From NCBI GenBank assembly GCA_964035575.1, contig OZ037837.1:1178001-1242000 (forward strand): a stretch of DNA of 64,000 bases, read 5' to 3'. Position numbers and translations under genes: made by a program. This DNA is from Rhynchopus sp. YZ270_cl-10 (taxonomy: Eukaryota). The notes under the pieces are model-generated. The model was not told the DNA's origin and made no database searches. It saw only the letters and a program-made list of their open reading frames with translations. Shown piece by piece: positions 6,501-39,505 of this stretch (position 1 is the first letter of the stretch; each line of letters starts with the position of its first letter).

Positions 6501-9500
6501 GCAGTGGGAGGACCACCCTGCAGGTCTGCATACCCAGCTCGGAGGGTTTAAGCTCAGGATTGAGTGTGTGCACATCTTGCGCAGCTCCTCGGGCTGGTGC
6601 GTTTCTGCAAGCTCCCATGTGTCGGGGGATGTGTAGGTGCCTGTGCAGGTCTTCTGCGAAACCAGTCCCGTACTCGAACCCAGCGCTCTTGTGCTGATGT
6701 TTTGTTTTCCACGTCTTTCTTTTCTTTCTTGTTGACCTTGTGGTGGAATAAATTCTTGGCCGTCGCCGTTTGGAACTGCTTGCAGTGTTGAACACTGCAA
6801 GCGTTCGCAATGACCAGGTCACTTGCATCGTACGTCCCGTCATCGGGTCCAAACACTCCAGTGCTCCGCAAAAAAAATGCCACCTCCAGATCGATGGGGA
6901 CATCACGCAAGCGGCATAAACCCAGCCGTGGTCGGCGTACTGCTTCTCCCTTTTTTCGGTTACCGCTACAACATCACCGCCGTCGTCATCCAGGTGTCCA
7001 TATCCTTTTTGACCAGATCTCACCCCTAGCGACGTTTATCTCAACCACACACTCTTCTAACCCCCTCTCTCCCCCCCTCACAGAATGGAAAAGCTCGTGA
7101 TCGACCTGCAAAGCCTCCAATCCGATGTGAAGACAGGCCAAGACGACCGTCTGCAACAAGCCCTTCTTCACGTGGACGAGCAGGCTGCCCGCATCGCCTC
7201 TTTGGAGGCTGACCGTCGCGACCGCGCTGCCGAGAGCAGTGCACAGGAGGAACGCATGCGGCTGCGCTACCGCTTGGCGAAGCAGGAGCAGTTCCGTCTC
7301 GAGGATGAAGTGCGTCGTGTGAGCGATGAGTTTGGCCAGAGCAGCTACGACCTCAGCATGGTGCAGGACAAGCTGGTACACAGCCAGGAGCGTTGCGACT
7401 TCCTGGAGCACCAACTCAAGAAGCTTCTCCAAGGTGCCGAGCCGACACCCGATGCCGATGTTGCCGGCACAGCCTCGGCCACTGCGGCACTCCAAAGCCA
7501 GGTTGCCTCGCTCACAGCAGCACGGAACAACCTGAAAACACAGCTCGACGCAGCACGCGCCTCGGCAGAAGGCAGCACCGCAGAAGGGAATGCACTCATG
7601 GCACGTAACGAAGAGCTCGCAGCAGTCATCAAGGACCGTGATGAAGCAATAGAGAACAGCAAGGCCCGTGAAGAGGAGAGGGTGAAGACACTCAAGAGTC
7701 AGCTGCATGAGGTATGTTGTGTGGTTTTGTGTTGTGGGGGTGATAAAACGAAAAAAGTTGTATTTTTTTGTCAGATGTAAACCACGAAAATGGATGTAGG
7801 ACTGCATGGTTTGGGTGTCCATAGTACCAAGGTACACTGTCATGAGAGGGATTTGTGTTTTCAAGTCAACCTTTGTCTTCTTATTAGTTTGTCACATCAT
7901 GAAGTCAAATGCTGTTCATAATCTGTTGGAAGAGTGTAGCTGCAACAGCAGTCTTCTCACGTAAAGGACTCTGATTTTGGGCCATTTTTTAAAACAGTTC
8001 TTGAGAGTTGAAGCTAGGCAAGAAACCTTTCTCACATCTCCACTCCCATACAGGCACAATCTGTGAACAAAACGACAGCCGAAGCCATGAAGTCGATCAT
8101 ATCTGAGAAGGAAGGATACGCCACGTCGGTATGCTTCACTTCACGATTTTTTTTGGAAGAATTTTTTCAAAAATAAAAATTGCTTCTAAAAAACTTCCTA
8201 TGCTTTACCCCCCCTCACTCTTTTTTGGTCAAAATACTCAGAAAATTTCCACTTTTTTCCTCCCTTCCCCCCTTTTTTGCCATTTTGAACCATTTCAGAC
8301 ACCCTTTTTATAATCAATACACATAAATTCTTCCTTACCACTTTTTCAAACACCCCACAGTACGGCAAGATCGAACTTGAGAAGATGGCTTTGGTCGCAG
8401 TCAAGGAGCAGGACGACGAGAACATCAGAAAGCTTCAGGGCCTGCTCCAGGAGGCACGCGACACACACGCGAAGCTCAACACACAGCTTGGGGGCATCGC
8501 CGCTGAGAACAAAAAGCTTCGTGTCGAGCTGGCTGAGGTCAAACTGCAGCTCGGCAACGAAACCGCCAAGAACAAAACCATTGTCAACCTCGAAGGCGAA
8601 AAGCTTGCTGGAGTCCAAAAACTTGCCGCACGCTTGGAACAGGAGAACAAATCCTACAAGACATCCATTGCCGAGAAGGACACACACATTGCAAAGCTCC
8701 TGAAGAACGACGCGGCACAGAGAGTCACACCGAGACCTGAACAAGCGAAGATCGCAGGCCTCGAGAAGGTGGTCAGCAGCAGAGACGCAACCATTGCAAA
8801 GCTCACTGCTGAGGCGCAGGGCTGGCAGCGCAAAGCGGAGCTTGCCGATGCGGCAGGATCCAAGCCCGTAGAGGAAGACCCAAGCATGAAGCAAATCGTG
8901 GCCCGTCTCCAAAGCAAAGTCACCATGCGTGAGGCCCGCAGTACAAAGCTCTCCCAAGAGCTCTCGGACAAGACAGAGGAGCTGCAGGTGCAGAGAAAGG
9001 AGCTTGAGAGCATGCGCATCCAGCTGGCTGACATGCGCAAGGAGAAGGGAATAGCCGAGTCGGACCGTGACAGTGCTGACCAGCGTGTGGATAAGGTGTC
9101 CCGTGAGATTGACCTGATCGATACGGCAAAGGTATGTGATGTGGGTGGGTTGTGTTTGTGAAAAATGTGGGGGGGAGTGGGGGTGAGCGTAATCTACACG
9201 GGGTTTGGCTGTGTCTGATGTTGCAGTTTTGGTAGTGTGGTTTGGGGCTGTGGGTAGAGAGCCTCCCCTCCTTGTGTGCAGAATTTTTGGTGAATATTGC
9301 TGAGGGCTTGCTAAAGGTGCTTGTGGTGCACTCATGTTCATTTGGATGATTTTTTTTTTGTGTGTGAATCATTTTGGTCCGTGTCACTGAGTGTAGGGAT
9401 GCGATCAAGAATTAAACTCTTCCCCCCAAACCCCCTTTCATCTCTAGTTTTCTTTATCCAAACGTCGAGTGGACGGCGTAATAATTTTGAGTCTTGCCCT

Positions 9501-11865
9501 CTTGTATGGACCCTGTGGAACATCGTTGTCCCTGTGATAGTAGGCTAAAATCAGACAAGATTTTTTTTTGTTCTTTTTTCATTTGTAATACGTCATTAAC
9601 AATTTACAGAACTCTGCTCGCGAGGCGACACGCCTTGAACGTGAGGTCAAGCAGCTGAAGGAGACCATCCGCAGTCGCGAGGCAGACCTTGAGACAGCAC
9701 GTGGTGCATCGGAGGCACTGCAGGGGAGGTGTGGTGTGCTCGAGGCAGAGGTTGCCACGCTTGTGGGCGAGCGCAACCGCGACAAAGACCTGCTTGAAGA
9801 GGCGCGTGCAGCAGCGATGCAGGCGGACGCTCGCACGGCACAGGCGACAGCAGCGCTCAAGGATGTGAAGGACCTGCATGCAGAAGCTGTGCAACGTTTG
9901 CAGGACACCGAGGCACGCATGCAGTGCGAGGCGAACAGTGCTGCACAGTTGCAGGCACAGCTCCAAGCACAGCTGCAGGAGGTGCGGGGTGAGCTTCAAC
10001 AGCTGCAGGAACAACAACAACAACAACAGCAGCAGCAGCAGCAACAACAACAACAACAACAACAACAGCAGCTCGCAGCAGCAGCAGCAGCAGCAGCCGC
10101 AGCTGAAGCAGCTGAAGCTGAAGCAGCAGAAGCAGCAGCAGCTGCAGAAGCAGAAGCAGCAGCTGCAGAAGCAGCAGAAGCAGCAGCTGCAGAAGCAGCA
10201 GAAGCAGCAGAAGCAGCAGCAGCAGCAGCTGCAGAAGCTGAAGCAGCAGCAGCCGAGGAACCTGCAGAAGAAGCTGAGGAAGCAGCCGAGGCAGACGCCC
10301 CCCACCACGACACCGCCAGCACCTCCTCCCGCAAGCGCGCACGCTCCTCAGACGCGCCTTCCGAAGGTGCCGAGCCCGACGTCGACGCACCGCCGAGCAA
10401 ACGCCCCTGCATCGAACGCAGCAGCGGTGTCGCCATCGACGTCTCGCCTGTCCCGGACGACCAGCCTGACCAGGAGGGCCTCCCACCTGCCGAGGACGAA
10501 GAGCAGGAGGAGTGGGTCGAGGGTGAAGGCGAAGGCGAGGGGGACGTTGAGCTCATGGAGGACGGAGAGGTGGAAGGAGACGGAGAAGAAGCGGGGGAAG
10601 GGGCACCTGCAGAGGAGATGCAGGAAGGTGAAGAAGAAGGAGCGGCAGAAGAGCAAGAGGCTGAGGCTGAGGCCGAGGGTGTTGCAGACGAAGAAGCCGT
10701 GCTCGCAGACATGACCATGGGCGAAGAGCAGCAGGGTGAAGAACAAGAGGAGGAAGAGGAGGGGGCCGACGTTGAGGGGCAAGTGGAGGGCGAAGGAGCA
10801 TCAGGTGTAGAGATGGAGGCTGAGGAGGCTGAGGAGGAAGTCGAGGCTGTGGAGGCTGTGGAGGAAGTGCCAGCAGGGGAGGGGGACGGGACAATGGAAG
10901 CCGACCTTGAGACTCCGGTATGACAAGCACTGTCTTGCACAGAATTTTGACTGATTTGCGTTGAAAAGAGAAAAAAAATATAACCACTCATTTGCTAACG
11001 AATGTTACTAATGCCTCTTTAGGTTTGAAGATAGTGTTTATTGGTGTGGCTGAAAGGGGGTGTCATTGTTGTGCTACTTTCTGCTATTTTTTTTTTTTTT
11101 TGCTATTCTGGGCTGGATTTTTTGGTGCGGCTGAAGGGAGGTGCTACTTTCTGCTATTTTGGGGGTCGTCGGCCAAACCATTTATGTTTATCACATACTT
11201 TTTTTTTACGCCAATAGATTTTCCAGGACTAATTTCAGGACGTAGTCATCCTCGCTGCATTGATCGATGTATTTGACAAAATATCAGTCCATCGAATATT
11301 TCATAATGCACATCCCCCTTTTTATCATTTTCACCCCCCCCCCCTTCAGGTCGACCCCTCGCTTATTGCACAAGACTCAACACTGTTCCCTTACTCCCAA
11401 ACCTCTGACATGCCGGAGGATCAGGAACAGGAAGGTGCCTTCGACGGAACACTTGACGCGATGGACGGAGATGCGTCTGAATCCCCTGCAGGCGTAGAAC
11501 CCGAAGCTGAAGAACCCGAGCTGGGGCAACCTAGTCAGAACGACCAAACAGAAGACCCCCCGTCCGACCAGGTGCAGGGGGAAACCACACCTACACCCTC
11601 CCCTGTCCCTGTCTCCATGTTTGTGCCTGAGGCGGGAAGTGCGTTTGGTGCTGCACTCAAAGGTGGCGCGTCACCCTTCGGTGCGCCTGCGGTTAACCCA
11701 TTCGCGCAGCCAGCGCAAACAGGACCAAAAAGCAACCTCGCAATGGGTTGGGGTGCGCCAGTGAAGAAGGATTCGTCGCCTGCCCCTGCCACCTCCCCCT
11801 TCGCCCCTGGGGCGACTACACCGCCCCCGCAGAATCTTTTCTCGCAACCGCCACCGAAGAAGTGA
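3589..11865 (+). CDS. TPR/Mlp1-like nuclear-basket coiled-coil protein, 7 exons (3589-5910, 6181-6272, 7084-7711, 8054-8128, 8361-9131, 9610-10917, 11350-11865), ~1903 aa
   Basis: All six introns start GTATG and end CAG, and the exons join in frame (5712 nt). Long coiled coil with segments resembling TPR/Mlp1 (GLSMSGAYCSW...EAMAPAIYHQKRE; NVAKVVERNEHL; QRDNVLNLL), then an acidic, disordered C-terminus with SPFG/NPF motifs. The exon structure is seen directly; the orthology is recalled similarity. Confidence 0.75.
10011..10255 (+). repeat. Coding (CAA/CAG)n and (GCA/GAA)n microsatellite encoding polyQ followed by an Ala/Glu tract
   Basis: Directly visible trinucleotide repeats inside exon 6. 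Confidence 0.95.
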
Positions 11866-16696: not shown

Positions 16697-16927
16697 GCTT
16701 CGTGGAGCTTGCAGAGTGCTGCGGAGGACTCCTTCAACTGGTTTCATATGTCACTCACCCAACCCCTTCCAGACACCCCTGCACCCTCCCACCTCTCCGA
16801 AACACACAATGTGGGTGACACGCAGCCACCGCACCACAGATGCCGAGCTGTGAGAACTGTGGCCTGCACAGCTGCAGTGCGGGATGTGCACGGAGAGGTT
16901 CTGCTGCGACACACCTGTGTGCAATGA
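16697..16927 (+). pseudogene. Degenerate 5' fragment of the B-box gene family
   Basis: Matches ~59500-59735 and ~44245-44425 (upstream region plus MPSCENCG... start), with indels and an early stop. Confidence 0.8.
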
Positions 16928-17125
16928 TGATCTCATGCCTTGTACCTGACGCAGAGGGGCTGGCGAACTGAGGCAAAGAGAACGTGCAGCCGCATGGGAG
17001 AAGGGATCAAGGTGACAGCTTGCCACACCTTCGTTGTTCGTACTGACGCACCTGAGGATGTTGTCCCAAGGCCAGAGCTCTCCATCCATGGAATACGCTC
17101 AATCATCTTCTGCATGGCGTCCTGC

Positions 17126-17240
17126 GTGGTGATGCTGGGGTGGAACAGGGACGTGCCCAGCCATGGGGTGCTTTCGTGCATTTGTCTGGCACCTCGGCTT
17201 GCCGTGGTTGCAGCACGAGAGCACCTTTGGCGTTCTTGCT
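17126..17240 (+). promoter_or_regulatory. Conserved ~100-nt structured upstream element, copy 1 (others ~28010-28105, ~29510-29590 degenerate, ~38659-38758, 46543-46657)
   Basis: Stem GGTGCT(T/C)TCGTGC / GCACGAGAGCACC plus outer AGGGACG / CGTTCTT pairing; each copy lies upstream of a gene start. The repeat is certain; a regulatory role is inferred. Confidence 0.6.
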
Positions 17241-17561
17241 GGGGTGGGTGGGGTGGGGTGCGCTGGTGTGGGGTGCCTATCTTGGGTGGTGTTTTTATTC
17301 AGTGTGTGGGTTCACTTTCGCGACATGGCACTGTGCCGTCTGTGCCCTCAGGCAGGTGGCAGCTGTGCACATCTCCCCACTTACCCTGGGAGAGGTAGAG
17401 GGGCAGCGGGGTGTGTGGGAGGAGGGGGAGAGGCAGTGGGTGGGGGTGGGATCGCAGCAGTGGTTCAGAACTCTCTGCTTGGTCACAGCAAGACTGCCCA
17501 GAACACATCACCACAACACACCAACCTCTGTGAACAGACACATACAAGACACATCAAGAAG

Positions 17562-20500
17562 ATGGGATCCGGAGCGACGAAGCCTGAAAAGGACGAGATT
17601 GCAAAGGGAATCACAGAGAAGGAGAGGCCCGTGGACGCAGTGGACAGCGTGGACGGGAGGACAATGCTGCACAGTGCCGTGCTTGCGGGGGACGTGGAGG
17701 CAGTGCGGTTTCTTGTGGAGAACGGGGCAGGGAACGTGCGTGACAGGGACGGGAAGGTGCCGCTGTGGTACGCACTGCAGCACAGGGACGCGGATGTGCG
17801 GGGGCGACTTGAGGCGGAGCTGGGGGCGCATGCAGCACAGATCCTTGTAGAGGTGGAGGATGCTGTGCAGGTGTACCTCACTCACGGTGTCGCCACAACA
17901 ACAGCAACAGGTGTGGCAGTGGAACGGAGCAGTGGAGATGCAACGACAGCACCTCTTACTGACCCTCACATGGACATGGCGAAAGACACGAACACTTCGA
18001 CTGGAGACAGGCACCTGGGAGAGGACGATCTTGACGGGGACACGGGTGCACTGCGGCACACAGACGGACGGAAGGTGGAGTTCCTGCGGAAAACAGACGA
18101 CAACAGCAGCAACAACAACAAGAACAGCAATGGAGGTGAAGACCTGCTGTGCTGGCTGCGTGGTCTGCCAAAGGTGGATCCGCCGTTGGGCTACACAGAC
18201 GAACACGTGCGGCACATGGAGGCGGGGTTCCGTGTGGTGTGCAAGCGTCTGCTGGAGGACATGAGAGGACGGAGGGAGGCTGCGGGGACACGTGGTGGGC
18301 ACGTGGGGGTGGAGGACTGGATGGCGGCACGCGACCCGTTTGAGCTGCTGCTGTCGGGGTTCCTGTTCACGTCTGACTGCGTGGAGTATGTGCTGGACAG
18401 CGGCGGGGATGTTGTGTGCGACGAAATGGACGGGACACCGCAGATTGCGAAAGGGCCTGACGGGAAGCTGCGGTACATCAAACTGACGGAGCGTTCTGTG
18501 CTGGACAACCACGGGAGTGCTGCTGATGTGAAATCACAGTCGCTTGCGCTGTACGCAACGATGAACACTGCGATGCGTGCTGTGGGGCAGCTGGCTGCTG
18601 TGAAGGAGTGGAAGGGGACACCTGAGAAGACAGCACCGAACGTGTTTGAGCTGTCACCTGCACCCCCGCAGCTGCACGTGATTGCGACCTTTGCGCCGCT
18701 GATCCGTGGTCTGGACCGGCTGATTGGGAGCCGTCGGAAGCAGATGCGGACTGTGTTCCGTGGGATCAATGTGAACGTGTCTGCGAAGTACGCGCTGAAT
18801 ACGCACATTGTGTGGAACTGCTTCACGTCGACAACACTGAAGCAGGATGTGGCTCGGAGCTTCATGTACGGGAAGGGGGGCACGTTCTTTGTGGTGGTGG
18901 CGAAGGAGGGTGCTGCAGACGTGAAGTTCTCGTCTGTGTATGCTGGGGAGGACGAGCTGCTGTACACAGCGAACATCGAGTACCGGGTGCAGTGGAAGCT
19001 TTCGCCTACGCTGCTGCGGATGATGGGTCTGCGCTTTGATGTGATTGTGATGCAGGAGGTGTGTTCTGGTGTGGGGGAGACGAGTGCGGCTGAGCAGGTG
19101 GGTGCGCTGCAGGAGGTGATGGGACACACAGTCGCGTTCTTCAAGGACTACCTTGCGCAGTACGTGGAGGGGCGTGTGGGGGACGACACACGTGTGGATG
19201 AGTCGGAGACACGTCCGCTGATGGAGGAGGTGCGGAGGTGGCTTCGTGCACGTGGAGGTGGAGGTGGGAAGCAGATGTCTTCCGTGTGCACACAGGCAGC
19301 AGCGGGCACAGAGCGCAAGCCTGATGTGGAGGCGAGAGAAGAAAGACAAGGGACGTGTGGTGTGCTGTGTGTGATCGGAGAAGGAGGGAGCGGGAAGACG
19401 TCTGCTTCGATTGCAATTCTGAGCGACCTTGCAACGTCTGCGAGGAAGAGCGAAAGCACCAGCAACGAAGACACAACGACAAACACGGACAGAAACAGAA
19501 ACAGCGTGGTGAGTGATGTGACTGCGGATGCGGATGCGAAGCCGTACTTCCCTGTGTTTGTGGCGCTGCCGACAGTGAAGCAACACCTGCTTGAGAAGGG
19601 AGGGCTGGACAGGTTTGTGCTGGAGTCGTTTGCGCTGCGGGAGGCGGACCGTGCGTTCCTTGCGGAGACGTACGAGGTGGTGCTGGTGCTGGACTCGCTG
19701 GACGAGGTTGGGCTGACGCAGGAGGATGTGGGTGCTGTGGTGTCTGAGGGTGGCCTTCTGTGCCGGCACCCATGGGTGGAGGCACACTGCAGCGTTGTTG
19801 TGACTGTGCGTGGTGAGTACCTGAAGGGTGTGGACACGTCTCCGTCTGGTGTGTGTGGGGCTGGTGTGCGTACTCTGTACATGCAGCCGTTCACAGAGGT
19901 GGATGCGAGAACGTACATCAAACGTGCAAACACAGCCTGGGAGAAGGAACACAAAGAGGAGAAGGAGAAGTCAGCCCACAAGGAGGAGTGCACAGTCTTT
20001 GTGCGTGAGGAGGACGTTGAGGGACTTGTGCAGCTGCGGAACCCGTTTGTGCTGCACATGGCGTGCCACGCGCAGTGCAGCGGGAAGGCTTCTGAGGAGG
20101 TGATCTACGAGACCTACCTGGAGACGTGGACGAAGAAGGAGATGGCGTCTGGTGGAGTTGCTGTTGCTGTTGCTGTTGCTGATGCTGTTTCGGATGTGTC
20201 TTTGGAGGATGTGGTGCGTGCAGGGGAGCTTGTTGCATGCAGGATGCTGGAGACAAACGAGTGGCAGGGGACTGTGGGTGTGGCGTCGGAGGTTCTTGAT
20301 TCGCAGCACGGTGTGTGTGAGGCTGTGCGGGATGCGTGCTTCCGCTGCCTGCCGTTCCGGATTGAGGACTTTGGGGAGGAGCGGAGTGCGTTCACGTTCC
20401 GGCACAAGTCGCTTGGGGAGCACCTTGCAGCACGGCGGCTTGCACGTGATCCAGCAGGGACACTGGGGACGCTGGTGCAGCGGAGCTTCAGCAAGGACTC

Positions 20501-22817
20501 GCAGCGTGTGCTTGGGTTCTTTGCGGCGCTGGTGTGTGGAGACAGTGAGCTGTACGAACGTGCCTGCACAGAGCTGCTTGCGGCTGTGAAGGCGACACGC
20601 GGCAGTGCAGGTGCAGGTGCAGGTGTAGTTCCAGGTGGAGATGCAGGTGTTGGTGGGGAGGGTGCTGTGACAGCAGGGTCGAATGCAGCAGCACTGCTGG
20701 CACGTGCACGCATCCCTGTGAGTGGGGAGGACCTGAGCGGGATCCGTGTGTCGAACTGCGACCTGCGCGGGTCTCTGTTTGTGGAGACGGCGCTGACGGG
20801 TGCTTCCTTCTCGAACTGCTGGCTGGAGCACACTGAGTTCCACACCTGCGACATGGGTGGCACGATGCTGCCGGACTGCTCCCTTGGCACACCACTTCCT
20901 GTACTGCAGCATCGTGCCTATGATGTGGCAATGGCACCTGATGGCAGTCAAATGGTTACAGCTGGCCAAGACGGCAGTGTACATGTGTGGAGTATGTCTT
21001 CTGGGGAAGAAGTGATGGTTTTGAAAGGACATTCGAAGCACGTCAATGGAGTGGCAGTAACACCTGACGGCACCCGCGTAGTTTCGTGCTCCGCTGACAG
21101 AACTGTGCTTGTGTGGGATATGCACACTGGGGAGGTAGTGTTCGTCTTGGAAGGCCACGAAGGAGATGTGTGCGAAGTGGCAGTCACTCCCGATAGTTCC
21201 AAGGTTGTTTCAACTTCTCGTGAAGACGGCATCCGTGTGTGGGATCTCTCGACGGGAATGGAAGTGCTGGCAATGAAGTCGCCTGGCATTCGCAGCATGG
21301 TTATTACGAAGGACGGAAGTCAAATAGTGACATGCTCTTACAAGGTGCTGTGCGTATGGGATCTGGTGACGGGGAAGCAGGAGATGCAGTGGCCTTGTCA
21401 TATGATGTATTCGCATGCACTGGCAGTCACTCCCGATGGATGCCATGTTGTTTCGTGTATTGATGGCGCACATCTTTGGAACCTCTCCACTGGGGCAGAG
21501 GTGATGGTGGTCCATGCCGGCGCTGGGTTGAGAGCAGTGGCAGTCACTCCCGATGGATGTCACGTGGTTGCTGGATCTAGAAGCGGCAATGTGCACGTTT
21601 GGAGCATTTCGACTGGGAAGGAGGTGACGGTGTTGCAAGGGCATACTTCTCTTGTCCATGCAGTTGCAGTGTCACCAGATGGATGCAACGTGGTTTCATG
21701 CTCCCAGGACGACGGTACTGTTCGAGTGTGGAACATCACAACCGGGAAGGAGACACCAGGTTTCGAAAGATTCCCACACGGGCCTGTGGCAGTTGCCCCT
21801 GATGGATCTATCATTTCGTACCGTGGCAAGAGGAAGTCCATCTGGAACGCATCCACCGGCAGGCAGACACATGTAGTTGAAGCACGGATACATAATGAGG
21901 GTGTTGCCGTGTACCCAGATGGCTCTCGTGTAGTTTATTTCACTTGCGACGACGCTGGCGAAAGGAGAGCGTGTGTGTGGGACGTTGCGACGGGGAAAGT
22001 GCAGCCTTTGTGCACAGATTCCAGTGAGTTTGCGGTGTTCTTGAAAGGGTGTGGAAGACTGCGTCCCTTAGCAGTGTCTCCCGATGCATCTCACGTGGTG
22101 ACCTGTTCACAGACTTCACAGAAGAGAGGCACTTGCTGTATGTATGTGTGGAGCATGCCGACTGGGAAGAAGGTGTCAGAATATGCAGGAACTACTTGCT
22201 GTCCCGACGGAATGGTAGTGACTCCTGATGGACTGCATGTGGTTTCACACTATAGTTCAAGCTGTGATGTTGGCAAAACCGTACACATGTGGAAACTTCA
22301 CACTGGAGAAGACACGATGGTGTTCAAAGGACATAGTGAAGATGTCTACGACGTCGCCGTTACTCGCGATGGATCTCGTCTTGTTTCATGCTCTGAGGAC
22401 GAGACTGTGCGTGTGTGGGATGTTGCCAGCGGGAAGGAGGTCTTCATCTGGCAGCATTCCTGCTACGTGTACTCAGTAGCACTGACACCTGATGAAGCTC
22501 ACGTCGTGTCGAGTACGGACAGTTTTATGAGTGTTTGGAGCATGACCACTGGTGAGAAGGTGGCAGAGATCAGGGCACATTGTGATTTGCACAACGTTGC
22601 TGTGAGCCCTGATGGACGCGAAGTGATGTGCGCTTGCGAGGATAACACTGTGCGTGTGTGGACCATCTGCACTGGGGAAGTCGGCACGATTGATGGGTTG
22701 CGGCTGAAGAGAGTGATCGGTGTCCCTCCAACAGTTCCTCGTGCATTAGGCTGTCGCAATGCTGATGCTGTGGAACCTGAACTTGCGAGACGGATTCTTT
22801 GTGCTGTCGAGGAGTGA
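17562..22817 (+). CDS. NLR-like STAND protein: N-myristoyl motif - ankyrin - ADP-ribosyltransferase (R-S-E type) - NACHT NTPase - pentapeptide repeats - WD40 repeats (~1751 aa)
   Basis: MGSGAT start; GRTMLHSAVLAGD ankyrin; ART motifs FRG (18756), FTSTT (18822), EDE (18948); Walker A GEGGSGKT (19377-19400), Walker B LVLDSLDE, RNPF, FRHKSLGEHLAA; DLSGIRVSNCDLRGSLF pentapeptides (~20680-20880); >10 WD40 repeats GH...VAVTPDG...VWD (~20900-22680). Confidence 0.9.
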   Translation: MGSGATKPEKDEIAKGITEKERPVDAVDSVDGRTMLHSAVLAGDVEAVRFLVENGAGNVRDRDGKVPLWYALQHRDADVRGRLEAELGAHAAQILVEVEDAVQVYLTHGVATTTATGVAVERSSGDATTAPLTDPHMDMAKDTNTSTGDRHLGEDDLDGDTGALRHTDGRKVEFLRKTDDNSSNNNKNSNGGEDLLCWLRGLPKVDPPLGYTDEHVRHMEAGFRVVCKRLLEDMRGRREAAGTRGGHVGVEDWMAARDPFELLLSGFLFTSDCVEYVLDSGGDVVCDEMDGTPQIAKGPDGKLRYIKLTERSVLDNHGSAADVKSQSLALYATMNTAMRAVGQLAAVKEWKGTPEKTAPNVFELSPAPPQLHVIATFAPLIRGLDRLIGSRRKQMRTVFRGINVNVSAKYALNTHIVWNCFTSTTLKQDVARSFMYGKGGTFFVVVAKEGAADVKFSSVYAGEDELLYTANIEYRVQWKLSPTLLRMMGLRFDVIVMQEVCSGVGETSAAEQVGALQEVMGHTVAFFKDYLAQYVEGRVGDDTRVDESETRPLMEEVRRWLRARGGGGGKQMSSVCTQAAAGTERKPDVEAREERQGTCGVLCVIGEGGSGKTSASIAILSDLATSARKSESTSNEDTTTNTDRNRNSVVSDVTADADAKPYFPVFVALPTVKQHLLEKGGLDRFVLESFALREADRAFLAETYEVVLVLDSLDEVGLTQEDVGAVVSEGGLLCRHPWVEAHCSVVVTVRGEYLKGVDTSPSGVCGAGVRTLYMQPFTEVDARTYIKRANTAWEKEHKEEKEKSAHKEECTVFVREEDVEGLVQLRNPFVLHMACHAQCSGKASEEVIYETYLETWTKKEMASGGVAVAVAVADAVSDVSLEDVVRAGELVACRMLETNEWQGTVGVASEVLDSQHGVCEAVRDACFRCLPFRIEDFGEERSAFTFRHKSLGEHLAARRLARDPAGTLGTLVQRSFSKDSQRVLGFFAALVCGDSELYERACTELLAAVKATRGSAGAGAGVVPGGDAGVGGEGAVTAGSNAAALLARARIPVSGEDLSGIRVSNCDLRGSLFVETALTGASFSNCWLEHTEFHTCDMGGTMLPDCSLGTPLPVLQHRAYDVAMAPDGSQMVTAGQDGSVHVWSMSSGEEVMVLKGHSKHVNGVAVTPDGTRVVSCSADRTVLVWDMHTGEVVFVLEGHEGDVCEVAVTPDSSKVVSTSREDGIRVWDLSTGMEVLAMKSPGIRSMVITKDGSQIVTCSYKVLCVWDLVTGKQEMQWPCHMMYSHALAVTPDGCHVVSCIDGAHLWNLSTGAEVMVVHAGAGLRAVAVTPDGCHVVAGSRSGNVHVWSISTGKEVTVLQGHTSLVHAVAVSPDGCNVVSCSQDDGTVRVWNITTGKETPGFERFPHGPVAVAPDGSIISYRGKRKSIWNASTGRQTHVVEARIHNEGVAVYPDGSRVVYFTCDDAGERRACVWDVATGKVQPLCTDSSEFAVFLKGCGRLRPLAVSPDASHVVTCSQTSQKRGTCCMYVWSMPTGKKVSEYAGTTCCPDGMVVTPDGLHVVSHYSSSCDVGKTVHMWKLHTGEDTMVFKGHSEDVYDVAVTRDGSRLVSCSEDETVRVWDVASGKEVFIWQHSCYVYSVALTPDEAHVVSSTDSFMSVWSMTTGEKVAEIRAHCDLHNVAVSPDGREVMCACEDNTVRVWTICTGEVGTIDGLRLKRVIGVPPTVPRALGCRNADAVEPELARRILCAVEE

Positions 22818-23445
22818 GCGCACTGTTCGTACTTGCTCTTTGTGTTTGCCTCTTTTCCAAGACGAATGCAGTCTGAGTGACGAGCACGAATGGTGTTGAC
22901 ACTGCCTCGCACCCGGGCTTATTGGCTACGACCGTCGCCCAGTTTTTACGTACCCGCGCTACACCATGCACATGCTCGAACACGTCATCGTACGTGCCAA
23001 AATTACGAACTCCGGCCGGGAAATGACATCATCCCTGACAACAAACTTGTAGAAGCCAGCGCAGCTGATGCTGTGCGATAACGAATATGATAAGGTGACT
23101 AAGCACGAGAGGCTTAGGTTCATCTTATAAACTTTTCCTTACTTTTCGCCTTTGCAGTTCGGGAGGATCTTGTCTTATTGTTCCGTTTTACAACGGGGGG
23201 AAGCACTTTGCATAGTTACACAGTTACAAAGCTTTCAAAAGCACAAATGCACAAGGAAAAATAAAATGCCCATACACATACAAAATATTGTTTTTCAATT
23301 CCACAGTTACAACCAAGTTTCCAAAAACAAAAGACCTCCCCCCTTGCAACTGTTTGTTGTCGACTAAATGAACAAACCATAGAAGAAGAAACATGATCTA
23401 ACTATCCTAAGCAACCCAGCCCTTCCCGAATCAAACAATCTTCAA

Positions 23446-24201: not shown

Positions 24202-25122
24202 ATGGAAATGTGTGTGGAGAGCTTTGACGGAGAGAAGTACACAATCGATGTGGGTGTGGATGACACAACTGCGGACATACGGCGGAAGGTGGCGTCTGCA
24301 GCAGAGTTGTGCGAAGACGGCTTTGACATAAGCTTTGGCGGGAAGGCGATGGCAGAAGGAGACGACACGACGCAGCTGAGTGCTGGAGACACAGTTGTGC
24401 TGACGAAGACGAAGTCGGAGAAGGACGACGCCATTGCAGCTCTTCGTGACTTGGGTGAGATCCTGACGGCAGAGAGGTTCAAAGGTCTGACAGATCTCAA
24501 GCTGATTCATTTGTTTCTGCAGGCGGAAGTTGTTACTGAGATCCACCAAGAATTCTTAGCATATCGCACCTTCGAAGAACTTGATCTCAGTGGTGTGTCG
24601 GGTGCGACTAAAATAAGCTCCATGGTGCTGCTCGGCTGCGCCTTTTTGCACACTGCTGATTTATCTGGGTGGAGCAATGTGACACATGTTGAGTCAGGCT
24701 TCCTCTACAGCTGCACCTCGTTGACCACACTTGACATATCTGGGTGGCACAATGTGACGCAAATAGGATACTATTTCCTCTCCAACTGCAGTGCATTGCG
24801 GACTGTCGACCTCTCTGGGTGGGGCAATGTGATGCGAGTTGAGGACGACTTTCTCTCAAAATGCACCTCCTTGACAGCACTTGACTTATCTGCGTGGAGC
24901 AATGTCTCGCAAATAGGCTGTACCTTCCTCTCCAGGTGCGAGTCATTAACAACACTTGACTTGTCTGGGTGGACCAGTATAGAACACATAGGGAGAGGCT
25001 TCTTGAAAGGAAGCCACATACCTGCAGACAGCATCAACGTCAGTGGATCGGGCAGGGTTGTGTCAGAATATGTGCATATCCATGACATGGAAGAGAACAG
25101 ATGTCAATGTGTGTGCATATGA
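24202..25122 (+). CDS. Ubiquitin-like domain + LRR protein with C-terminal CaaX-like motif (306 aa)
   Basis: N-terminal MEMCVESFDGEKYTIDVGVDDTTADIRRKVA (beta-grasp/ubiquitin pattern); 25-aa LRRs LDLSGWSNVTxIGxxFLxxC; ends RCQCVCI*. Confidence 0.85.
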   Translation: MEMCVESFDGEKYTIDVGVDDTTADIRRKVASAAELCEDGFDISFGGKAMAEGDDTTQLSAGDTVVLTKTKSEKDDAIAALRDLGEILTAERFKGLTDLKLIHLFLQAEVVTEIHQEFLAYRTFEELDLSGVSGATKISSMVLLGCAFLHTADLSGWSNVTHVESGFLYSCTSLTTLDISGWHNVTQIGYYFLSNCSALRTVDLSGWGNVMRVEDDFLSKCTSLTALDLSAWSNVSQIGCTFLSRCESLTTLDLSGWTSIEHIGRGFLKGSHIPADSINVSGSGRVVSEYVHIHDMEENRCQCVCI

Positions 25123-25809: not shown

Positions 25810-27024
25810 ATGGAAATATGTGTGGAGAGCTTTGACGGAGAGAAGTACACAATCGAGGTGGGTGTGGATGATACAACTGCGGACATACGGCGGAAGGTGG
25901 CGTCTGCAGCAGAGTTGCGCGAAGACGGCTTTGATATGAGTTTTGGCGGGAAGGCGATGGCAGAAGGAGACGACACGACGCAGCTGAGTGCTGGGGACAC
26001 GATTGTGCTGAAGGAGAACTTGTCGCAGAAGGACCGAGCCATTGCAGCTCTTCATGACTTGGGTGAGACACCAACGGCTGAGAGGTTCGCAGGTCTGACA
26101 GATCCTGGGGTCATTCGTCTGTATCTTTATGCCGAGGTTGTTACTGATATCCACAACCAATTCTTGCCAAATTTCTCGTTGCAGCAGCTTGACCTCAGCG
26201 CTGTGCCTGTTGTGACTAAAATCGGTTACAACTTCCTCTACAACTGCATCACGTTGACCACAGTCGACATGTCTGGGTGGAGCAGTGTGACGGAGGTGGG
26301 GTCTTCCTTCCTCCGAGGTTGCGTCGCGCTGAGAACAGTTGACTTGTCTGGGTGGGTCAATGTCACGCATATAGAAAGCTTCTTCCTATCCGACTGTGCC
26401 GTAACAACGCTGAACCTATCTGGGTGGACGAATGTGACGCACATTGGGTTCGCCTTCCTATACAAATGCAGCGCGCTGACGACGGCTGACCTCTCTGGCT
26501 GGAGTTATGTGCGCGAGATCGGCTCCTCCTTCTGCCATGGCTGCACCGCGTTGAGAGCTGTTGACTTATCTGGGTGGACAGGTGTGACGCAGATTGACGG
26601 TCATTTCTTCCGCGACTGCATCGCATTGACCAGAGTTGGCCTCGCAAGGTGGGGCAATGTCAGAAGGGTGGCTGACCACTTCCTCTCCAACTGCGTCGCA
26701 TTGACGCAACTTGACCTGTCTGGGTGGAGCGGTGTTACGTTTATTTCGCACTACTTCCTCTTCAACTGCGCCTCATTGACGCAGCTTGACTTATCTGGGT
26801 GGAGTAGTGTCACAAAAACATCGCACCACTTGCTCAGCAACTGCACGGCATTATCACAACTTGACCTGTCTGGGTGGAGCAGTGTGGTGGAGATGGGTCA
26901 CGGCTTGCTTGAAAATTGCAGCTTACAGACAGATGCCATCAATGTTACCGGATCGAGCCGTGTCGTGGCAAATGGCATACGCAGGCCTCGACAGCGGTCG
27001 CAGTCATGTTGTTCGTGCTCGTGA
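25810..27024 (+). CDS. Ubiquitin-like domain + LRR protein, tandem paralogue (~404 aa)
   Basis: Ubl domain nearly identical to the 24202 copy; more LRR units; ends RRPRQRSQSCCSCS*. Confidence 0.85.
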   Translation: MEICVESFDGEKYTIEVGVDDTTADIRRKVASAAELREDGFDMSFGGKAMAEGDDTTQLSAGDTIVLKENLSQKDRAIAALHDLGETPTAERFAGLTDPGVIRLYLYAEVVTDIHNQFLPNFSLQQLDLSAVPVVTKIGYNFLYNCITLTTVDMSGWSSVTEVGSSFLRGCVALRTVDLSGWVNVTHIESFFLSDCAVTTLNLSGWTNVTHIGFAFLYKCSALTTADLSGWSYVREIGSSFCHGCTALRAVDLSGWTGVTQIDGHFFRDCIALTRVGLARWGNVRRVADHFLSNCVALTQLDLSGWSGVTFISHYFLFNCASLTQLDLSGWSSVTKTSHHLLSNCTALSQLDLSGWSSVVEMGHGLLENCSLQTDAINVTGSSRVVANGIRRPRQRSQSCCSCS

Positions 27025-27935: not shown

Positions 27936-29290
27936 CATTTTTGATTTTGTACGAGGTGGGAGCTGTGTGCATCACCACTACAGGTCCGGTGTGCTGGTGT
28001 GGGGTGCCTAACAGGGACGTGCCCAGCGATGGGGTGCTCTCGTGCATGTCTAGCACCTCAGCTTGCCTGAAGTTGCAGCACGAGAGCACCTTTGGCGTTC
28101 TTGCTGGGGTGGGTGGGGTGGGGTGGGGTGTGCTGGAGCACTACCCTGTGGGTATGGCAACCAGTGGGGGACAGACCTGCACTACACGATGTGTTGAGGA
28201 GGGTCACGTATGTGCCGTTACCAGGGAGGGTAGGGAGGGTGATACGTGTTGCGGTGAAGGCCTGTGGGTTGGGTTGGGTCAGGGAGATGGAGGTGCACAG
28301 TGTTGTGGGTGTAGGGTTTTGGGTGTGGCGCTTCCCCTCCATTGTTGCGGTGTGGTGATGGGAGGGGAAGTTGTGGCCGGCTGTGGAGTGCTTTTGTGCA
28401 TTTGCCCCTACTGATGGAACCATGCCACTTCACACCGCTTCACACCACACTCACCCAACAACACCCACGTGCAGCCTCCCACACACACCACAACACACCC
28501 TTTCTTAAAATGTCGTCCCCGTGTGAGGCTGCCAAGACATTCGTGGACCTTCGTGTGGCGAAGAAGAACGACGAAGCAAAGCAGCACCTCGCAGACGACT
28601 GCGTGTGGACGGTGCCGACGATGACGGGGAGCGACACGAAGACCGGGAAGGACAACGTTGCGGCCTTCTGGGTTGAGCAGGACAAGAGTCTCCCGACAGT
28701 TGTGTCGATCGACGACTTCGAGCCGACGGGCGACAACGCGGCTGTGCGCAAGATGGTCATCAAGAAGATGATGATGAAGATCAACCTCACCCAGACCATC
28801 ACCTTCAACTCCGACATGAAGGTCGTCTCCTCTGTGACCGCCAAGGCATGAGGGGTGCGCTCATCCTGTCACGGATGGTTCTGCCTCCGTTTTTATTCTT
28901 TGTTCAAATGTGCGGATTTTTTTCGAGTGGTTTTGATTTTGATTTTGCTTTTGGCTTTGGTTTCTTGGTGACTAAGCACGAGAGGCTTCGGTTCATCTTG
29001 CAAACTTTTCTGTTGCTTTCTTTTCCACGCAGCTTTGGATGATGTGTATGCCCCTTGGGGGGCACCTCTGTTTTTCCAATATCTGCTGTTTACTTTGTGC
29101 TGTGCTATTATATTTTTCACCTGATTTTTCCCACTTCTTCTCTTTTCTCCACAACAAGACAAACCTCTGTGTACACAACCAGTCTCAACACAGGAGGTCA
29201 TTGTCGATGCAACAGAAACAGCGAAAAGAACGAAACCCCACCACCCACCCACTACCCCACCTCACTGTTTGCTGTGCCCACCCACCTCCA
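27936..29290 (+). repeat. ~1.3-kb segmental duplication, partner ~38586-39910
   Basis: Near-identical blocks including the upstream hairpin element, the SnoaL-like gene and the 3' region. Confidence 0.9.
28510..28851 (+). CDS. SnoaL/NTF2-like small protein (113 aa), copy 1
   Basis: Pattern AKTFVDL...DEAKQHLADDCVWTVP...GKDNVAAFW...ITFNSDMKVVS typical of the NTF2/SnoaL fold; GC3-rich codons. Confidence 0.7.
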   Translation: MSSPCEAAKTFVDLRVAKKNDEAKQHLADDCVWTVPTMTGSDTKTGKDNVAAFWVEQDKSLPTVVSIDDFEPTGDNAAVRKMVIKKMMMKINLTQTITFNSDMKVVSSVTAKA

Positions 29291-29854: not shown

Positions 29855-30545
29855 ATCCACATGCACTGGAATTTGTGTTCTCTAATTTTTATCAAAAAGC
29901 TTTCCCTTTAGTCCTTTCTGCCACACTCTTATTTGAATAATGAGGTGGGTGCCGAAGCCGTACTTCTCGTCACTTTCTGGGATGCATATCATTTGTGTCT
30001 CCCGTGCAGATGAACTGCCAAGGTGGTTTGTCGCCTGCCCTGATCCTCCACCACTCACAACAGAAATCACACAAAACACCAATGGAACTCAACATCGAGG
30101 GATTTGATGGTAAGATGTACTTCGTCGATGTGGATGTGGATGACACAGCGAAGGACCTGCGGCGGAAGGTGGCAACTGCAGTGGGGTTTGCTGAAGACAG
30201 CTTTTACATCCACACACAGGGCTTCGGAGGGAACCACGAAGGAGACGACATCAACATCACAGCGCTGAGTGCTGGGGAGACAGTCTCCCTGAAGCAGACG
30301 AAGAAGCAAGAATCCATGGCAGCTCTTTGTGCATTGGGTGAGACAGACCTCACACCAGAGAGGCTTTCGCGTGTCGAAGACCCCAAGGTGGCGCTGTTGT
30401 TTCTGCAGGCAGAAGTTGTAACTGCGATTCCAAAGAGGGTCCTGGCAGGCACTAATTTACGTAGGCTTGATCTGAGTGCCCCGTTGGCTGTTACTGCGAT
30501 TGATAGTGGCTTCTTATCAGGTTGCACGGCGTTAACCTCCATCGA

Positions 30546-33500
30546 TGAAGCTGCAGGAGGTCCTGAAGCAGAACGAGAGCCTGGCTGCGGAATGTGCGCG
30601 CATGCGGGATGAGTTGGACAAGGCGAAGGCCGAGCGTACCGAGGCCGAGCGCAGCCAGCGTCCGCGGGACAACGCGCAGGACCGCACAGAACGTGGGGAA
30701 CGGGACGAAGCCGCTGACGAGGCGGACGGACGTGAGCGGGTGGAGAGGGAAGGGATCCACCGCGGCACCAAGCAGCAGACGAAAGGCAAGAATGGGAAGG
30801 GTAGTGCCCCTGGGAATAAGCAGGTCCGCGGTGACGGGCAATATTAGCCACGGCCGTGGGCCTTGCCCCACTCAAGGTGATGTGCAGCAACGTGACGGCG
30901 CTACAGACGAACGGGAGTGCCCTGCTGAAGGTTGCTGGTGATAGTGGTGTGGATGTGGTGTTTGTGCAGGAGACGAAGACGACGGAGGCGACGCAGAAGC
31001 AGCTTACCTCCGCGTACCGCGACCTGGGATGGCAGGTGGTGTGGGGCAAGGCGTTACCCCCATGGAGGTCGGTGGATGAAGCGAAACCTGGGGGTGTGGC
31101 GATACTGGTGAAGATGGGCATCCCAATCCTTCCCCACACACCTTCATCGGACTTGGAGAAGAGCCTTTGGAACTCGACGCGATGGGTGCGAACGAAGGTG
31201 GCTTACGGCAACGGAAGCGAATGGCTAGACGTCACCTCCGTGTATGCGCCAGTGGCAGAACCAGAGGCCAGAGAACAGCTGCTCAGTGAGGTATTCGAAG
31301 CGGCGACGGTGCTTGGTGACGCTCCGGGGATCATTGCGGGTGACTTCAACACCCAGCCAGCAGACTCGGGGGTGTTGGAGGCAGCATTGGCCACGGGGTG
31401 GTGGAAGGACACCGCGGGGGAACACGCCGACGTGCTTGGGAGGGAGCCGGAGGCCACCTATGTGACGGTCGACAAGGGCAAGGAGATCAGCGAACCGAGC
31501 AGCCTTCTCCGGACTCACCGAAGTGGAGGTAGTCGAAGGGACCGGCATCCCGAAGCACAGGCCGGTGTCGGTCAGCCTAGACGTTGACGTCTATCGACAG
31601 CTCGTCCTTTCGCACTCACTGCCGAGAGCGTTCCCGCTTGAGATGTGCGGAGAAGGGGTGAAGAAGATGGCGAAGGAGTACGCGAACAAGGAGCTACAGT
31701 GGGGGGCATGCACACATCCTCAGGACTTGTGGGTTCAGTGGAACAAGTGGGCGGAGAAGTTTCTTTTGGAGGCATGCGCAGAGGAGATCGACGGCCCGAC
31801 GAAGGCGTACTGCGGAAGGGGACGAACCTGCGACCCGAAGCCGAAGCACGTGACGGCGAAGCAAAATGCGGAGGGTGATGTGCTGACGGTGCGTCAACGC
31901 AAGCTGACGAAGAACGCCGGCAGATTGGACGAGTGCCGACTGTGGTACGCGAGAACGGGTGGAGGGGTACCGCCTGTTGACGCCCACAACTGCTGGCGCA
32001 AGGCACACCAGGAGCTGAGAGTGTTGCTGGATGACGACACGCTCAGCAGCGAGATGCCGCCTGAGGAGGAGATACGGAGGTTGTGTGGTGTGGTGCGTGC
32101 GAAGGTGTCCGCAGTGAGCACCCGGGTACGGCTGCAGCGACTGGAGGACTGGAAGCAACGCATGCGGGATGCGTGGCACAACGCACCGAAGGCGATCTAC
32201 GACTTCTGCAAGGGGTCAAAGTTCCGACAGATGTCAGCGCTGAAGGACGCTACGGGTGGGTTTACCGCCAACTGCACGGAGATGGACGATCTTCTGCACG
32301 AAGCATGGATGCCGACCCTGCAGCGCTATGCAGATGACCCGGAACCTGACTGGAATGCGTTCAGGTCCACCTTTAAGGAGGACATTGAAGGGAGGGGTGA
32401 GAAGATGCAGCTGGTGAAGCTGACTGGTGAAGACCTGCAGAAGACGCTGGGGAGGATGAAGTCGCGCACCTCCGCTGGGGTAGAAGGCTGGCGCATGGTG
32501 GAGTTGAAGGCACTGCCGCTGTGTCTGCTGGACAAGCTTGCGGATGTGTTTGATGCGATTGAGTGCACAGGAGTGTGGCCACCCTCGTTGATGCGGGCAC
32601 TCATCTCGCTCATTCCGAAGGGCGAAGGAGACACACCTTTGGAGCAACGGCCGATCACCGTGACGTCCTGTGTGTACAGGCTGTGGGCTGCGACACGGCT
32701 CACGAAGCTGATCAAGTGGCAGGAGAGTTGGATAGGGAAGGGGCAGCATGGGTTCAGAGCCAAGCACAGCACCGCACATCTGTACTGGCGGCTGGCTCTC
32801 AAGATGGAGAAGGCGATTCTCTCGGGCGAGGACGATGAGGTGTGGGGGTTCACTGTGGATTACGCGAAGTGCTTTGACCGGGTACCACACCACATTGTGT
32901 TGTCTCTGGCAGAGGAATGGGGAGCACACCAGCGCATACTGAGTCCTCTCCGCTCAGCATATGCTACGATGGAACGGCGCTTCAAGCTGGGTGGTATTGG
33001 TGTAGGTAAAGCGTTCACTCCCACAAACGGGATCTTGCAGGGGTGTCCGTTGTCTGTGGTGCTGCTGAACGCTTTGATGGCGGTGTGGGGTTCTGCTGTG
33101 GAAAGGAGGACAGATGCAGAAGCCCTGGGGTACGCTGATGACGTGTACGCTGTGGCCGACGCAGAGGCGCCGGTGCATGACGCTACTCAGGTGACGAAGG
33201 AGTTCGTTGACGCAACGGACATGGAGGTGAAGCGGCAGAAGTGCGTGGGGTTCACCACCAAAAAGGTGACCACAAAATTTGGGCTGGAGGAGGATGCCTT
33301 CTTCCCCGACAAGAAGGAGTTCAAGTCGGTGGGAGCAGACATGTTGCTTGGGAACGGCCATTTCGGACCCATTGCGTGTGAGCGTGTGAAGAATGCGGTG
33401 GAAGTCTTCCACAGAGTTGCGAATGTGCCGCTGTCCTTTTCGGAGAAGGCGCTTATTGGCAGCAGGGGTCCGATGATGGCAGCGCTGCATGGGTGTGAAG

Positions 33501-38600: not shown

Positions 38601-39163
38601 CGAGGTGGGAGCTGTGCACATCACCACTACAGGTCCGGTGTGCTGGTGTGGGGTGCCTAACAGGGACGTGCCCAGCCATGGGGTGCTCTCGTGCATTTAT
38701 GTCTAGCACCTCAGCTTGCCTGAAGTTGCAGCACGAGAGCACCTTTGGCGTTCTTGCTGGGGTGGGGTGAGGTGTGCTGGTGGCACCTGGACCACTACCC
38801 TGTGGGTATGGCAACCAGTGGGGGACAGACCTGCACTACACGATGTGTTGAGGAGGGTCACGTATGTGCCGTTACCAGGGAGGGTAAGGAGGGTGATACG
38901 TGTTGCGGTGAAGGCCTGTGGGTTGGGTTGGGTCAGGGAGATGGAGGTGCACAGTGTTGTGGGTGTAGGGTTTTGGGTGTGGCGCTTCCCCTCCATTGTT
39001 GCGGTGTGGTGATGGGAGGGGAAGTTGTGGCCGGCTGTGGAGTGCTTTTGTGCATTTGCCCCTACTGATGGAACCATGCCACTTCACACCGCTTCACACC
39101 ACACTCACCCAACAACACCCACGTGCAGCCTCCCACACACACCACAACACACCCTTTCTTAAA

Positions 39164-39505
39164 ATGTCGTCCCCGTGTGAGGCTGCCAAGACATTCGTGG
39201 ACCTTCGTGTGGCGAAGAAGAACGACGAAGCAAAGCAGCACCTCGCAGACGACTGCGTGTGGACGGTGCCGACGATGACGGGGAGCGACACGAAGACCGG
39301 GAAGGACAACGTTGCGGCCTTCTGGGTTGAGCAGGACAAGAGTCTCCCGACAGTTGTGTCGATCGACGACTTCGAGCCGACAGGCGACAACGCGGCTGTG
39401 CGCAAGATGGTCATCAAGAAGATGATGATGAAGATCAACCTCACCCAGACCATCACCTTCAACTCCGACATGAAGGTCGTCTCCTCTGTGACCGCCAAGG
39501 CATGA
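39164..39505 (+). CDS. SnoaL/NTF2-like small protein (113 aa), copy 2
   Basis: Protein identical to 28510-28851; one synonymous difference seen (ACG vs ACA). Confidence 0.7.
   Translation: MSSPCEAAKTFVDLRVAKKNDEAKQHLADDCVWTVPTMTGSDTKTGKDNVAAFWVEQDKSLPTVVSIDDFEPTGDNAAVRKMVIKKMMMKINLTQTITFNSDMKVVSSVTAKA

Follow-up and report, generated by a model that had tools for sequence, protein, structure and literature searches.

A predicted ADP-ribosyltransferase-NACHT-WD40 protein of Rhynchopus sp. belongs to an expanded, diversifying NLR-like family of Euglenozoa

Gene and domain layout

The window analysed is a 64,000-nucleotide stretch of the genome of Rhynchopus sp. YZ270_cl-10 (assembly GCA_964035575.1, contig OZ037837.1, positions 1,178,001 to 1,242,000), and all positions below count from its first letter. 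It contains a single stop-free, intronless frame at 17562-22817 on the + strand, which encodes a protein of 1751 residues, P0001, collinear with its homologues. Judged from its sequence, P0001 is genuine and intact, and belongs to an expanded and diversifying family of Euglenozoan NLR-like proteins with an ADP-ribosyltransferase (ART) as the predicted effector. An earlier reading of the letters alone (the sequence-only reading) had described an intronless frame with ankyrin, ART, NACHT, pentapeptide and WD40 parts, and this layout was borne out by the open reading frame scan, Pfam, sequence motifs and a structure model. The features are as follows.

17562..22817, + strand: ankyrin-ART-NACHT-pentapeptide-WD40 open reading frame (P0001), NLR-like (Pfam, homologue collinearity)
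17562..17582, + strand: MGSGATK start, predicted N-myristoylation motif (consensus match only; MGSGASK in most paralogues)
17628..17795, + strand: ankyrin repeats, residues 23-78 (Pfam Ank_2, 32.4 bits, cut-off 27.3)
18132..19070, + strand: predicted R-S-ExE (ARTC-type) ADP-ribosyltransferase domain, residues 191-503 (Pfam, model, profile, residues)
19077..20591, + strand: NACHT-type STAND module with nucleotide-binding domain, helical domain 1, winged helix and helical domain 2, about residues 506-1010 (motifs, fold)
20730..20885, + strand: pentapeptide repeat linker, residues 1057-1108 (Pfam match at 1057-1093, 21.7-27 bits, cut-off 20.2)
20892..22676, + strand: 14 WD40 repeats, residues 1111-1705, hypervariable in the d-a loop and the b-c turn (Pfam, 197.8 bits; alignments)

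The likely start is 17562, because an MG[SCA][AGS] start, in most cases MGSGASK, occurs within the first 200 residues of 68 of 77 homologues, and what precedes it differs from one homologue to the next without any relation. An alternative in-frame ATG at 17163, which would lengthen the protein to 1884 residues, was dismissed on these grounds. The consensus for N-myristoylation is MGxxx[ST]. The pentapeptide linker is 96% identical among paralogues. The count of 14 WD repeats was made from the turn motifs, and we infer that the WD40 part forms two seven-bladed propellers. NLR-like proteins in the broad sense combine an effector, a NOD and superstructure-forming repeats (PMC4986451; here and below, papers are cited for the part of their text that was available). 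The predicted P0001 protein has this layout, with an N-terminal effector, a central NOD and C-terminal superstructure-forming repeats.

The ADP-ribosyltransferase domain

Pfam ART (PF01129) matches residues 373-476 of P0001 at 24-29 bits (cut-off 22.3). The R-S-ExE set that had been read as intact is present, formed by R400 (18759), S423 (18828), E463 (18948) and E465 (18954), the last two in the E463-x-E465 arrangement. The ExE motif marks arginine-specific ARTs. The region at 18540-19000, where the domain had been placed, does model as an ART fold, but the domain is larger than proposed; the structural matches cover residues 191-503 (about 18132-19070).

A single-sequence model of the ART region was poor (predicted local distance difference test, pLDDT, 31), and a PDB search with the single ART sequence returned only noise. 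The structure of residues 191-1113 was modelled from a 31-sequence alignment, with a mean pLDDT of 85.7 and a predicted template modelling score (pTM) of 0.83. Comparison of residues 191-503 of this model by VIA-align gave a Z of 15.6 and a root-mean-square deviation (rmsd) of 3.8 over 206 aligned residues with HopU1, and a Z of 15.2 and an rmsd of 2.9 over 191 aligned residues with ART2.2. Foldseek on the model also lists the ARTs Vis, HopU1 and ExoS, and a 17-sequence ART profile matches ART2.2, Vis and HopU1 at E values of 1e-11 to 9e-11. The nearest solved structures of this domain include bacterial injected effectors, namely HopU1, ExoS and the Tre1-type entry 6drh. Matches in the ESM Atlas, to rotifer and haptophyte ART clusters, score below 0.9 and are leads only.

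The ExE motif is kept in 74 of the 77 close homologues. Among 94 more distant proteins with both ART and NTPase, the residues are R-S-E-E in 76 and R-S-Q-E in seven, and the remaining 11 are degenerate or gapped. By its catalytic set and modelled fold, the N-half of P0001 fits the R-S-E clade (ARTC) of ARTs defined in PMC9503650. In five relatives (P0065, P0070, P0073, P0143 and P0157) the ART is degenerate or weak-scoring while NACHT-WD40 is kept; these are possibly sensor-only or decoy receptors.

The NACHT module

STAND/NACHT proteins are marked by Walker A, an hhhhD[GS]hDE Walker B, a sensor-1 arginine, a helical-domain-1 proline and winged-helix histidine motifs. P0001 has the Walker A GEGGSGKT at residues 606-613, the Walker B LDSLDE at 710-715, the sensor-1 R750, and the motifs NPF and FRHKS. 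Pfam NACHT (PF05729) scores 15.1 bits on P0001, below the cut-off of 26.7, and nSTAND1 is likewise under its cut-off at an E value of 7e-4; relatives P0092 (41.4 bits) and P0117 (26.9 bits) exceed the PF05729 cut-off. The best Foldseek matches of the model are NLRC4 (E value 9e-11), NOD2 and NLRP3. From residue 506 onward, VIA-align gave a Z of 14.3 and an rmsd of 5.4 over 394 aligned residues with NOD2, and a Z of 14.0 with NLRC4. Because motifs and fold agree, the NACHT assignment, already made in the sequence-only reading, is upheld despite the low Pfam score.

For the NACHT-pentapeptide part, the closest clusters in the ESM Atlas consist of bacterial proteins with NACHT and pentapeptide repeats (cosine 0.95, 198 of 256 features shared). 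This is a lead to a bacterial origin of that part.

Family size, range and architecture

A word-index protein search returned 77 proteins including P0001, with identity taken over residues 200-1110. At least 60% identity to P0001 is found in 65 of them, and 58 relatives reach at least 82%. Rather than a single-copy housekeeping gene, this is a member of a large, young and diversifying family, in keeping with the earlier proposal. The 65 close proteins are spread over 22 presumed contigs, told apart by their listed lengths, with 27 on the one of length 1,539,504, seven on 1,020,051, six on 798,917, and four on that of 1,300,354, the length given with the record of P0001 itself. No second copy was found by tblastn within the 64-kb window. 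Since several assemblies may be mixed, the analysis was repeated on the 27 proteins of one presumed contig, which left 24 after three truncated ones were set aside. The framework tree is star-like.

Library-wide, phmmer found 209 proteins at E values of 0.001 or less, of which the best 150 were listed. Scanning of 221 proteins with our own profiles showed the ART preceding the NTPase in 157, and one NTPase-bearing protein with more than 120 residues in front had no ART; the query contained the ART, which biases both counts. Pentapeptide repeats and WD40 accompany the core in 44 of the 94 distant ART-NTPase proteins. A Pfam scan of 33 chosen relatives found other sensors, LRR (P0105, P0145) and TPR (P0119, P0176), and other additions, namely SAM, RCC1-like and endonuclease/phosphatase domains. 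Thus the ART-NTPase core appears fixed and the ends vary, with the same caution about the query. The repertoire, which had been called modular, is so in its sensors and N-terminal additions, but not in its effector, the ART that stays in place.

Three relatives have unusual architectures. P0065 is rearranged, with the pentapeptide-WD40 part ahead of Ank-ART-NACHT; P0026 has 2932 residues; and P0118 has two NTPase-WD40 units. These are either tandem read-through products or gene-call artefacts.

In a FastTree phylogeny of 92 of the 96 ART-NTPase proteins (four were too short to include), P0001 clades with Diplonema papillatum, Lacrimia and 'Hpha' sequences (support 0.88). The window is likely diplonemid, and its guanine deaminase has its best named match in D. 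papillatum, at 47% identity, which sets it apart from that species. Among 30 relatives checked, 12 are named: four from Lacrimia lanifica, two each from Flectonema neradi and Apiculatamorpha spiralis, and one each from D. papillatum (KAJ9461234.1, annotated merely as a 'putative WD repeat-containing protein'), 'Hpha', which we take to be Hemistasia, Euglena gracilis and Pigoraptor chileana. The relatives occur in diplonemids, a kinetoplastid and Euglena. Pigoraptor is cultured on a kinetoplastid, and its record could be prey contamination. Eleven of the 12 named relatives are EukProt records; because most of these bear transcript-assembly names, the relatives are likely transcribed. A metagenome scan found no relative.

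Hypervariability of the WD40 repeats

The close paralogues are 92-97% identical to P0001 in the ART, and mostly 70-85% and 55-80% identical in the two WD40 halves. Over 53 full-length paralogues the ART is the most conserved segment, with a mean distance of 0.023 compared to 0.53 in the top loops. The entropy of 59 aligned C-terminal parts rises and falls periodically along the WD40 repeats. Its maxima are at positions -8, -7, -5 and +11, with a weaker one at +13, counted from the residue preceding each PD turn, and the turns of the opposite face, PDG and xTG, are conserved. Of the 48 columns with an entropy of at least 2.5 bits, 47 fall in two top-face loops that make up 168 of the 595 columns.

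In the HNWD repeats of Podospora, positive selection was found at codons 7, 9, 25 and 27, in the d-a loop and the b-c turn on the top of the propeller (PMC1805685). The hypervariable sites of the P0001 family match the spacing of these codons (2 and 18) and the loops. Hypervariable columns make up 35 of the 56 HNWD-equivalent sites compared to 13 of the 539 others (Fisher p 4e-31), the fourth equivalent position being the weakest (mean 1.69 bits), and when the mask was slid across the repeats, all 40 other offsets scored lower.

The same pattern was found within the one-contig set of 24 proteins. All 35 hypervariable columns lie in loops, and the residue types in one column number as many as 15. 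Pairwise identity is 0.98 in the ART and in the NTPase, 0.87 in the WD framework, 0.52 in the loops and 0.32 at the four sites. A distinct top-face code is present in 52 of the 53 full-length paralogues.

Sequence variants were also counted, each DNA change being scored singly against P0001's codon in the window. Contigs of two public runs, aligned to a two-repeat stretch (21003-21272), gave 23 variants at a share of at least 20%; these were 15 non-synonymous and one synonymous in the loops and two and five in the framework (p 0.003). For the whole gene in four runs, 40 of 587 variant rows were listed and 38 of them are in frame; among these the N-half has 10 non-synonymous and 14 synonymous changes and the WD40 loops six and one.

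The repeats inside the P0001 gene share a mean of 34% amino-acid and 47% DNA identity (amino-acid maximum 68%, over a 22-residue core). Because the repeats within the gene are not homogenised, the variation lies between paralogues at fixed repeat positions. Shuffling of repeats of the HNWD kind was ruled out; none of 1378 paralogue pairs shares an identical repeat while being otherwise diverged. P0031 and P0052 share their last 745 residues without a single difference and have 103 differences before that, which suggests exchange of a whole sensor or an assembly artefact.

Genomic neighbourhood

Ubl-LRR and ankyrin genes, which the sequence-only reading had placed near P0001, were confirmed by Pfam; its B-box genes have no Pfam match, and the assignment rests on visible Cys/His (C/H) spacing. 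That these neighbours form one immune repertoire with P0001 gained no support beyond adjacency. The neighbouring genes are:

24202, 25810, 59883: Ubl-LRR genes (Pfam)
1809: ankyrin gene (Pfam)
44300, 59883: B-box-like genes (C/H spacing)

The frames at 24202-25122, 25810-27024 and 59883-61337 are paralogues combining a ubiquitin-like domain with BspA-type LRRs. A CaaX-like CVCI closes the first and a Cys-rich tail the second, possibly as prenylation motifs; the third bears a B-box-like region at its N-terminus. A further Ubl-LRR gene is interrupted at 30010-36720 by a long interspersed nuclear element (LINE), with endonuclease at 30880-31587 and reverse transcriptase at 31643-35608. The 5' part of the split gene stops near 30545 and an open LRR tail restarts near 35692. 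A 1.35 kb direct duplication, 95% identical, flanks it (27937-29275 and 38586-39917).

A second duplication, 94% identical, relates 44243-45111 to 59558-60430. One copy joins the shared B-box-like N-half to a low-complexity tail of GFPSF repeats, the other to Ubl-LRR, indicating a recent domain swap. Just upstream of the P0001 gene lie a piece that matches the B-box-like genes at their 5' ends (16697-16927) and a copy of a dispersed repeat of about 145 bases (17119-17268), found again at 27984, 38633 and 46543. To a pyrimidine-rich tract at 23090-23140 map hundreds of unrelated contigs with T-rich loose ends; the tract may resemble a common processing signal or be a repeat, or the mapping may reflect low complexity. 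At 3589-10923 are long coiled-coil frames with an acidic tail, which have no Pfam match and which we take, by eye, to be Tpr/Mlp nucleoporin-like.

Interpretation

The analysis argues that P0001 is probably an intracellular receptor for foreign (non-self) ligands, in a family that has recently expanded and diversifies its WD40 repeats. A number of points weigh against this. Contig membership was inferred only from equal listed sizes, and the close matches may mix assemblies or haplotypes; a 92%-identical twin of the window's guanine deaminase lies on the presumed contig of 798,917, which holds six members. ExE is lost in three of the 77 close homologues. A search with P0088 of D. papillatum gave only three relatives, at 43-52% identity, so that this distant branch looks single-copy and conserved, and the burst of expansion is on this ground taken as lineage-specific. 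The 2.5-bit threshold was chosen after inspection of the data, and the placement on the 'top face' rests on the repeat register. The selection signal consists of rough variant counts; the variants come from thresholded tables of assembled contigs, possibly of related strains, with non-independent rows, and among the 38 listed rows the WD framework has five non-synonymous and two synonymous changes, contrary to a clean framework signal. Finally, the ART-NACHT part has no match in PADLOC (2023 profile library); three full-length relatives match one PADLOC model, in the WD40 region only.

The same switch and effector could serve allorecognition, the ligand being a polymorphic protein of the same species and the outcome incompatibility in cell fusion, mating or cannibalism, as with het-e and het-c in Podospora. 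The closest evolutionary pattern is indeed that of the HNWD genes, for which allorecognition is the role that has been tested (PMC1805685). However, no polymorphic partner gene was identified, and dozens of coexisting specificities on one presumed contig would better fit surveillance of many ligands, which leaves this explanation unlikely.

A non-immune role, in which the propellers would read varied molecules from within the cell, from prey or from the environment, and the ART would be a regulatory modifier, also has a small chance of being right. Some branches of the family look single-copy, and TEP1, NWD1 and NWD2 carry NAD-consuming N-terminal domains and have largely obscure roles (10.64898/2026.09.04.749371). 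The P0001 family however combines saturating variation of the predicted binding face with a star-like, recent expansion. Such a combination is typical of antagonistic coevolution and not of stable signalling.

It is improbable that P0001 is an offensive effector against prey or host cells, its NACHT-WD40 part letting the ART fire only on a target-cell protein, a logic parallel to that of Crinklers. The injected bacterial effectors among the nearest solved ARTs (HopU1, ExoS, Tre1-type 6drh) would suit such a role, and diplonemids have been described as predatory or parasitic (10.64898/2026.01.29.702485). But the eukaryotic ART2.2 matches equally well, and the protein is 1751 residues long with a polar MG N-terminus in which no hydrophobic, signal-like stretch is seen by eye. 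Least probable is neutral proliferation, in which an intronless gene is duplicated or retroposed, gene conversion unifies the N-half and the loops drift under relaxed constraint; the window does hold a LINE and several duplications, the shared ends of P0031 and P0052 show exchange between copies or an assembly artefact, and truncation or rearrangement has affected a few of them (P0011, P0019, P0065, P0026), but the variation is confined to one face, the ART motifs are kept across Euglenozoa, and drift would hardly lower amino-acid identity to 32% when, in the same stretch, about 5 of 49 synonymous sites of the framework differ.

If P0001 is a receptor for foreign ligands, the following mechanism can be proposed. 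The MG start would tether the protein to a membrane, for example the plasma or food-vacuole membrane. By analogy with Apaf-1, HET-E and Avs, the propellers would hold the NACHT module closed in the ADP state. A foreign ligand, with a protein from an intracellular bacterium or a giant virus as the obvious candidate, would open the switch by binding to the propellers at their predicted top face. Nucleotide exchange and ATP-dependent oligomerisation, as in other STAND proteins, would then cluster or unmask the ART. As its ExE motif suggests, the ART may transfer ADP-ribose to an arginine of a host or invader protein; alternatively, it may hydrolyse and deplete NAD+, as do the NIR/TeTIR NADases. 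The outcome would be that the infected cell stops growing or dies, or that the invader is damaged.

A wider picture, which we regard as evenly balanced between right and wrong, is that of a Euglenozoan NLR-like immune system with a stable ART-NACHT core and interchangeable WD40, LRR or TPR sensors. One diplonemid branch of it would be in an arms race, and its dozens of receptors, each wired to an arginine ART, would have converged on HNWD-like diversification of the propeller face without repeat shuffling. If so, ADP-ribosylation would join the outputs of NLRs, and immunity based on a receptor repertoire would extend to a free-living unicellular eukaryote. Little is settled about the way in which intracellular bacteria and viruses are sensed by single-celled eukaryotes. 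The family offers a handle on this: its predicted enzyme lends itself to assays, the logic of its switch is known, and about 50 mapped hypervariable residues predict the ligand face. Few marine microeukaryotes are more abundant than the diplonemids (PMC10161547).

Comparison with known systems

The arginine-specific mono-ARTs ART2.2/ARTC2, Vis, HopU1 and ExoS share with P0001 the modelled fold (Z 13-15.6, rmsd 2.9-3.8, 164-206 residues) and the R-S-ExE set. They are however only 15-21% identical to it, and they are secreted, injected or ecto-enzymes that no STAND NTPase gates in cis. For an LRR-ART protein that lacks an NTPase, a function as sensor and effector has been proposed (PMC7955679).

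Animal NLRs resemble P0001 in the NACHT fold, as seen with NLRC4, NOD2 and NLRP3, but have LRR sensors, and death-fold adaptors in place of an enzyme. Apaf-1 has two propellers. Its WD40 region is matched by the family profile, and a PDB search with the full family alignment was dominated by WD40 matches. Unlike P0001, Apaf-1 has an NB-ARC and a death-fold adaptor instead of an enzyme. The bacterial NACHT-pentapeptide proteins, of cyanobacteria and planctomycetes, have the NACHT and pentapeptide parts as in P0001, and no ART family is shown for those clusters.

NIR (TeTIR, DUF4062)-NACHT-WD40 proteins are widespread in eukaryotes, including protists (10.64898/2026.09.04.749371, 10.64898/2026.09.21.753143). 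These proteins, TEP1, NWD1 and NWD2 among them, have an NAD+-consuming N-terminal enzyme on a NACHT-WD40 scaffold, as is predicted for P0001. The effector of all these proteins is a TIR-like NADase in the text available, whereas that of P0001 has the R-S-ExE set and a predicted ART fold. ART effectors are absent from the examined text of both papers. Full-text literature searches over openly available main texts returned only a TeTIR paper for ART, NACHT and WD40 in protists, and nothing for ADP-ribosyltransferase and NACHT in microbial eukaryotes. The terms NACHT, WD40 and ADP-ribosyl do not occur in the available main text of the D. papillatum genome paper or of the diplonemid genome preprint (10.64898/2026.01.29.702485), nor does ADP-ribos in that of the fungal NLR survey (PMC4986451). 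Our searches thus did not find a description of an ART-effector NLR-like family. Fusions of ART and STAND domains may be mentioned in the review of ART natural history that Aravind and colleagues published in 2015.

The closest parallel is with the HNWD/NWD proteins of Podospora anserina (HET-E, HET-D, HET-R, NWD2), which share the order effector-NACHT-WD40, the multigene family and the four variable positions per repeat. They differ in having a HET or prion-forming effector where P0001 has the ART; no HET domain was found in the N-half of P0001 by Pfam scans, which gave ankyrin and ART only. P0001 has in addition the ankyrin repeats, the MG start and the pentapeptide linker, and its host is a unicellular euglenozoan. 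Identity between repeats within a gene reaches 100% in HNWD, compared to the mean of 34% in P0001. Membership in HNWD was rejected since there is no HET domain and no internal homogenisation of repeats, although the diversification at four sites is shared. If functional, the P0001 family would represent a new effector chemistry for STAND/NLR receptors, and an HNWD-like diversification of the sensor that arose independently in a distant supergroup. P0001 likely works like the HNWD/Avs-type receptors, yet is a member of neither.

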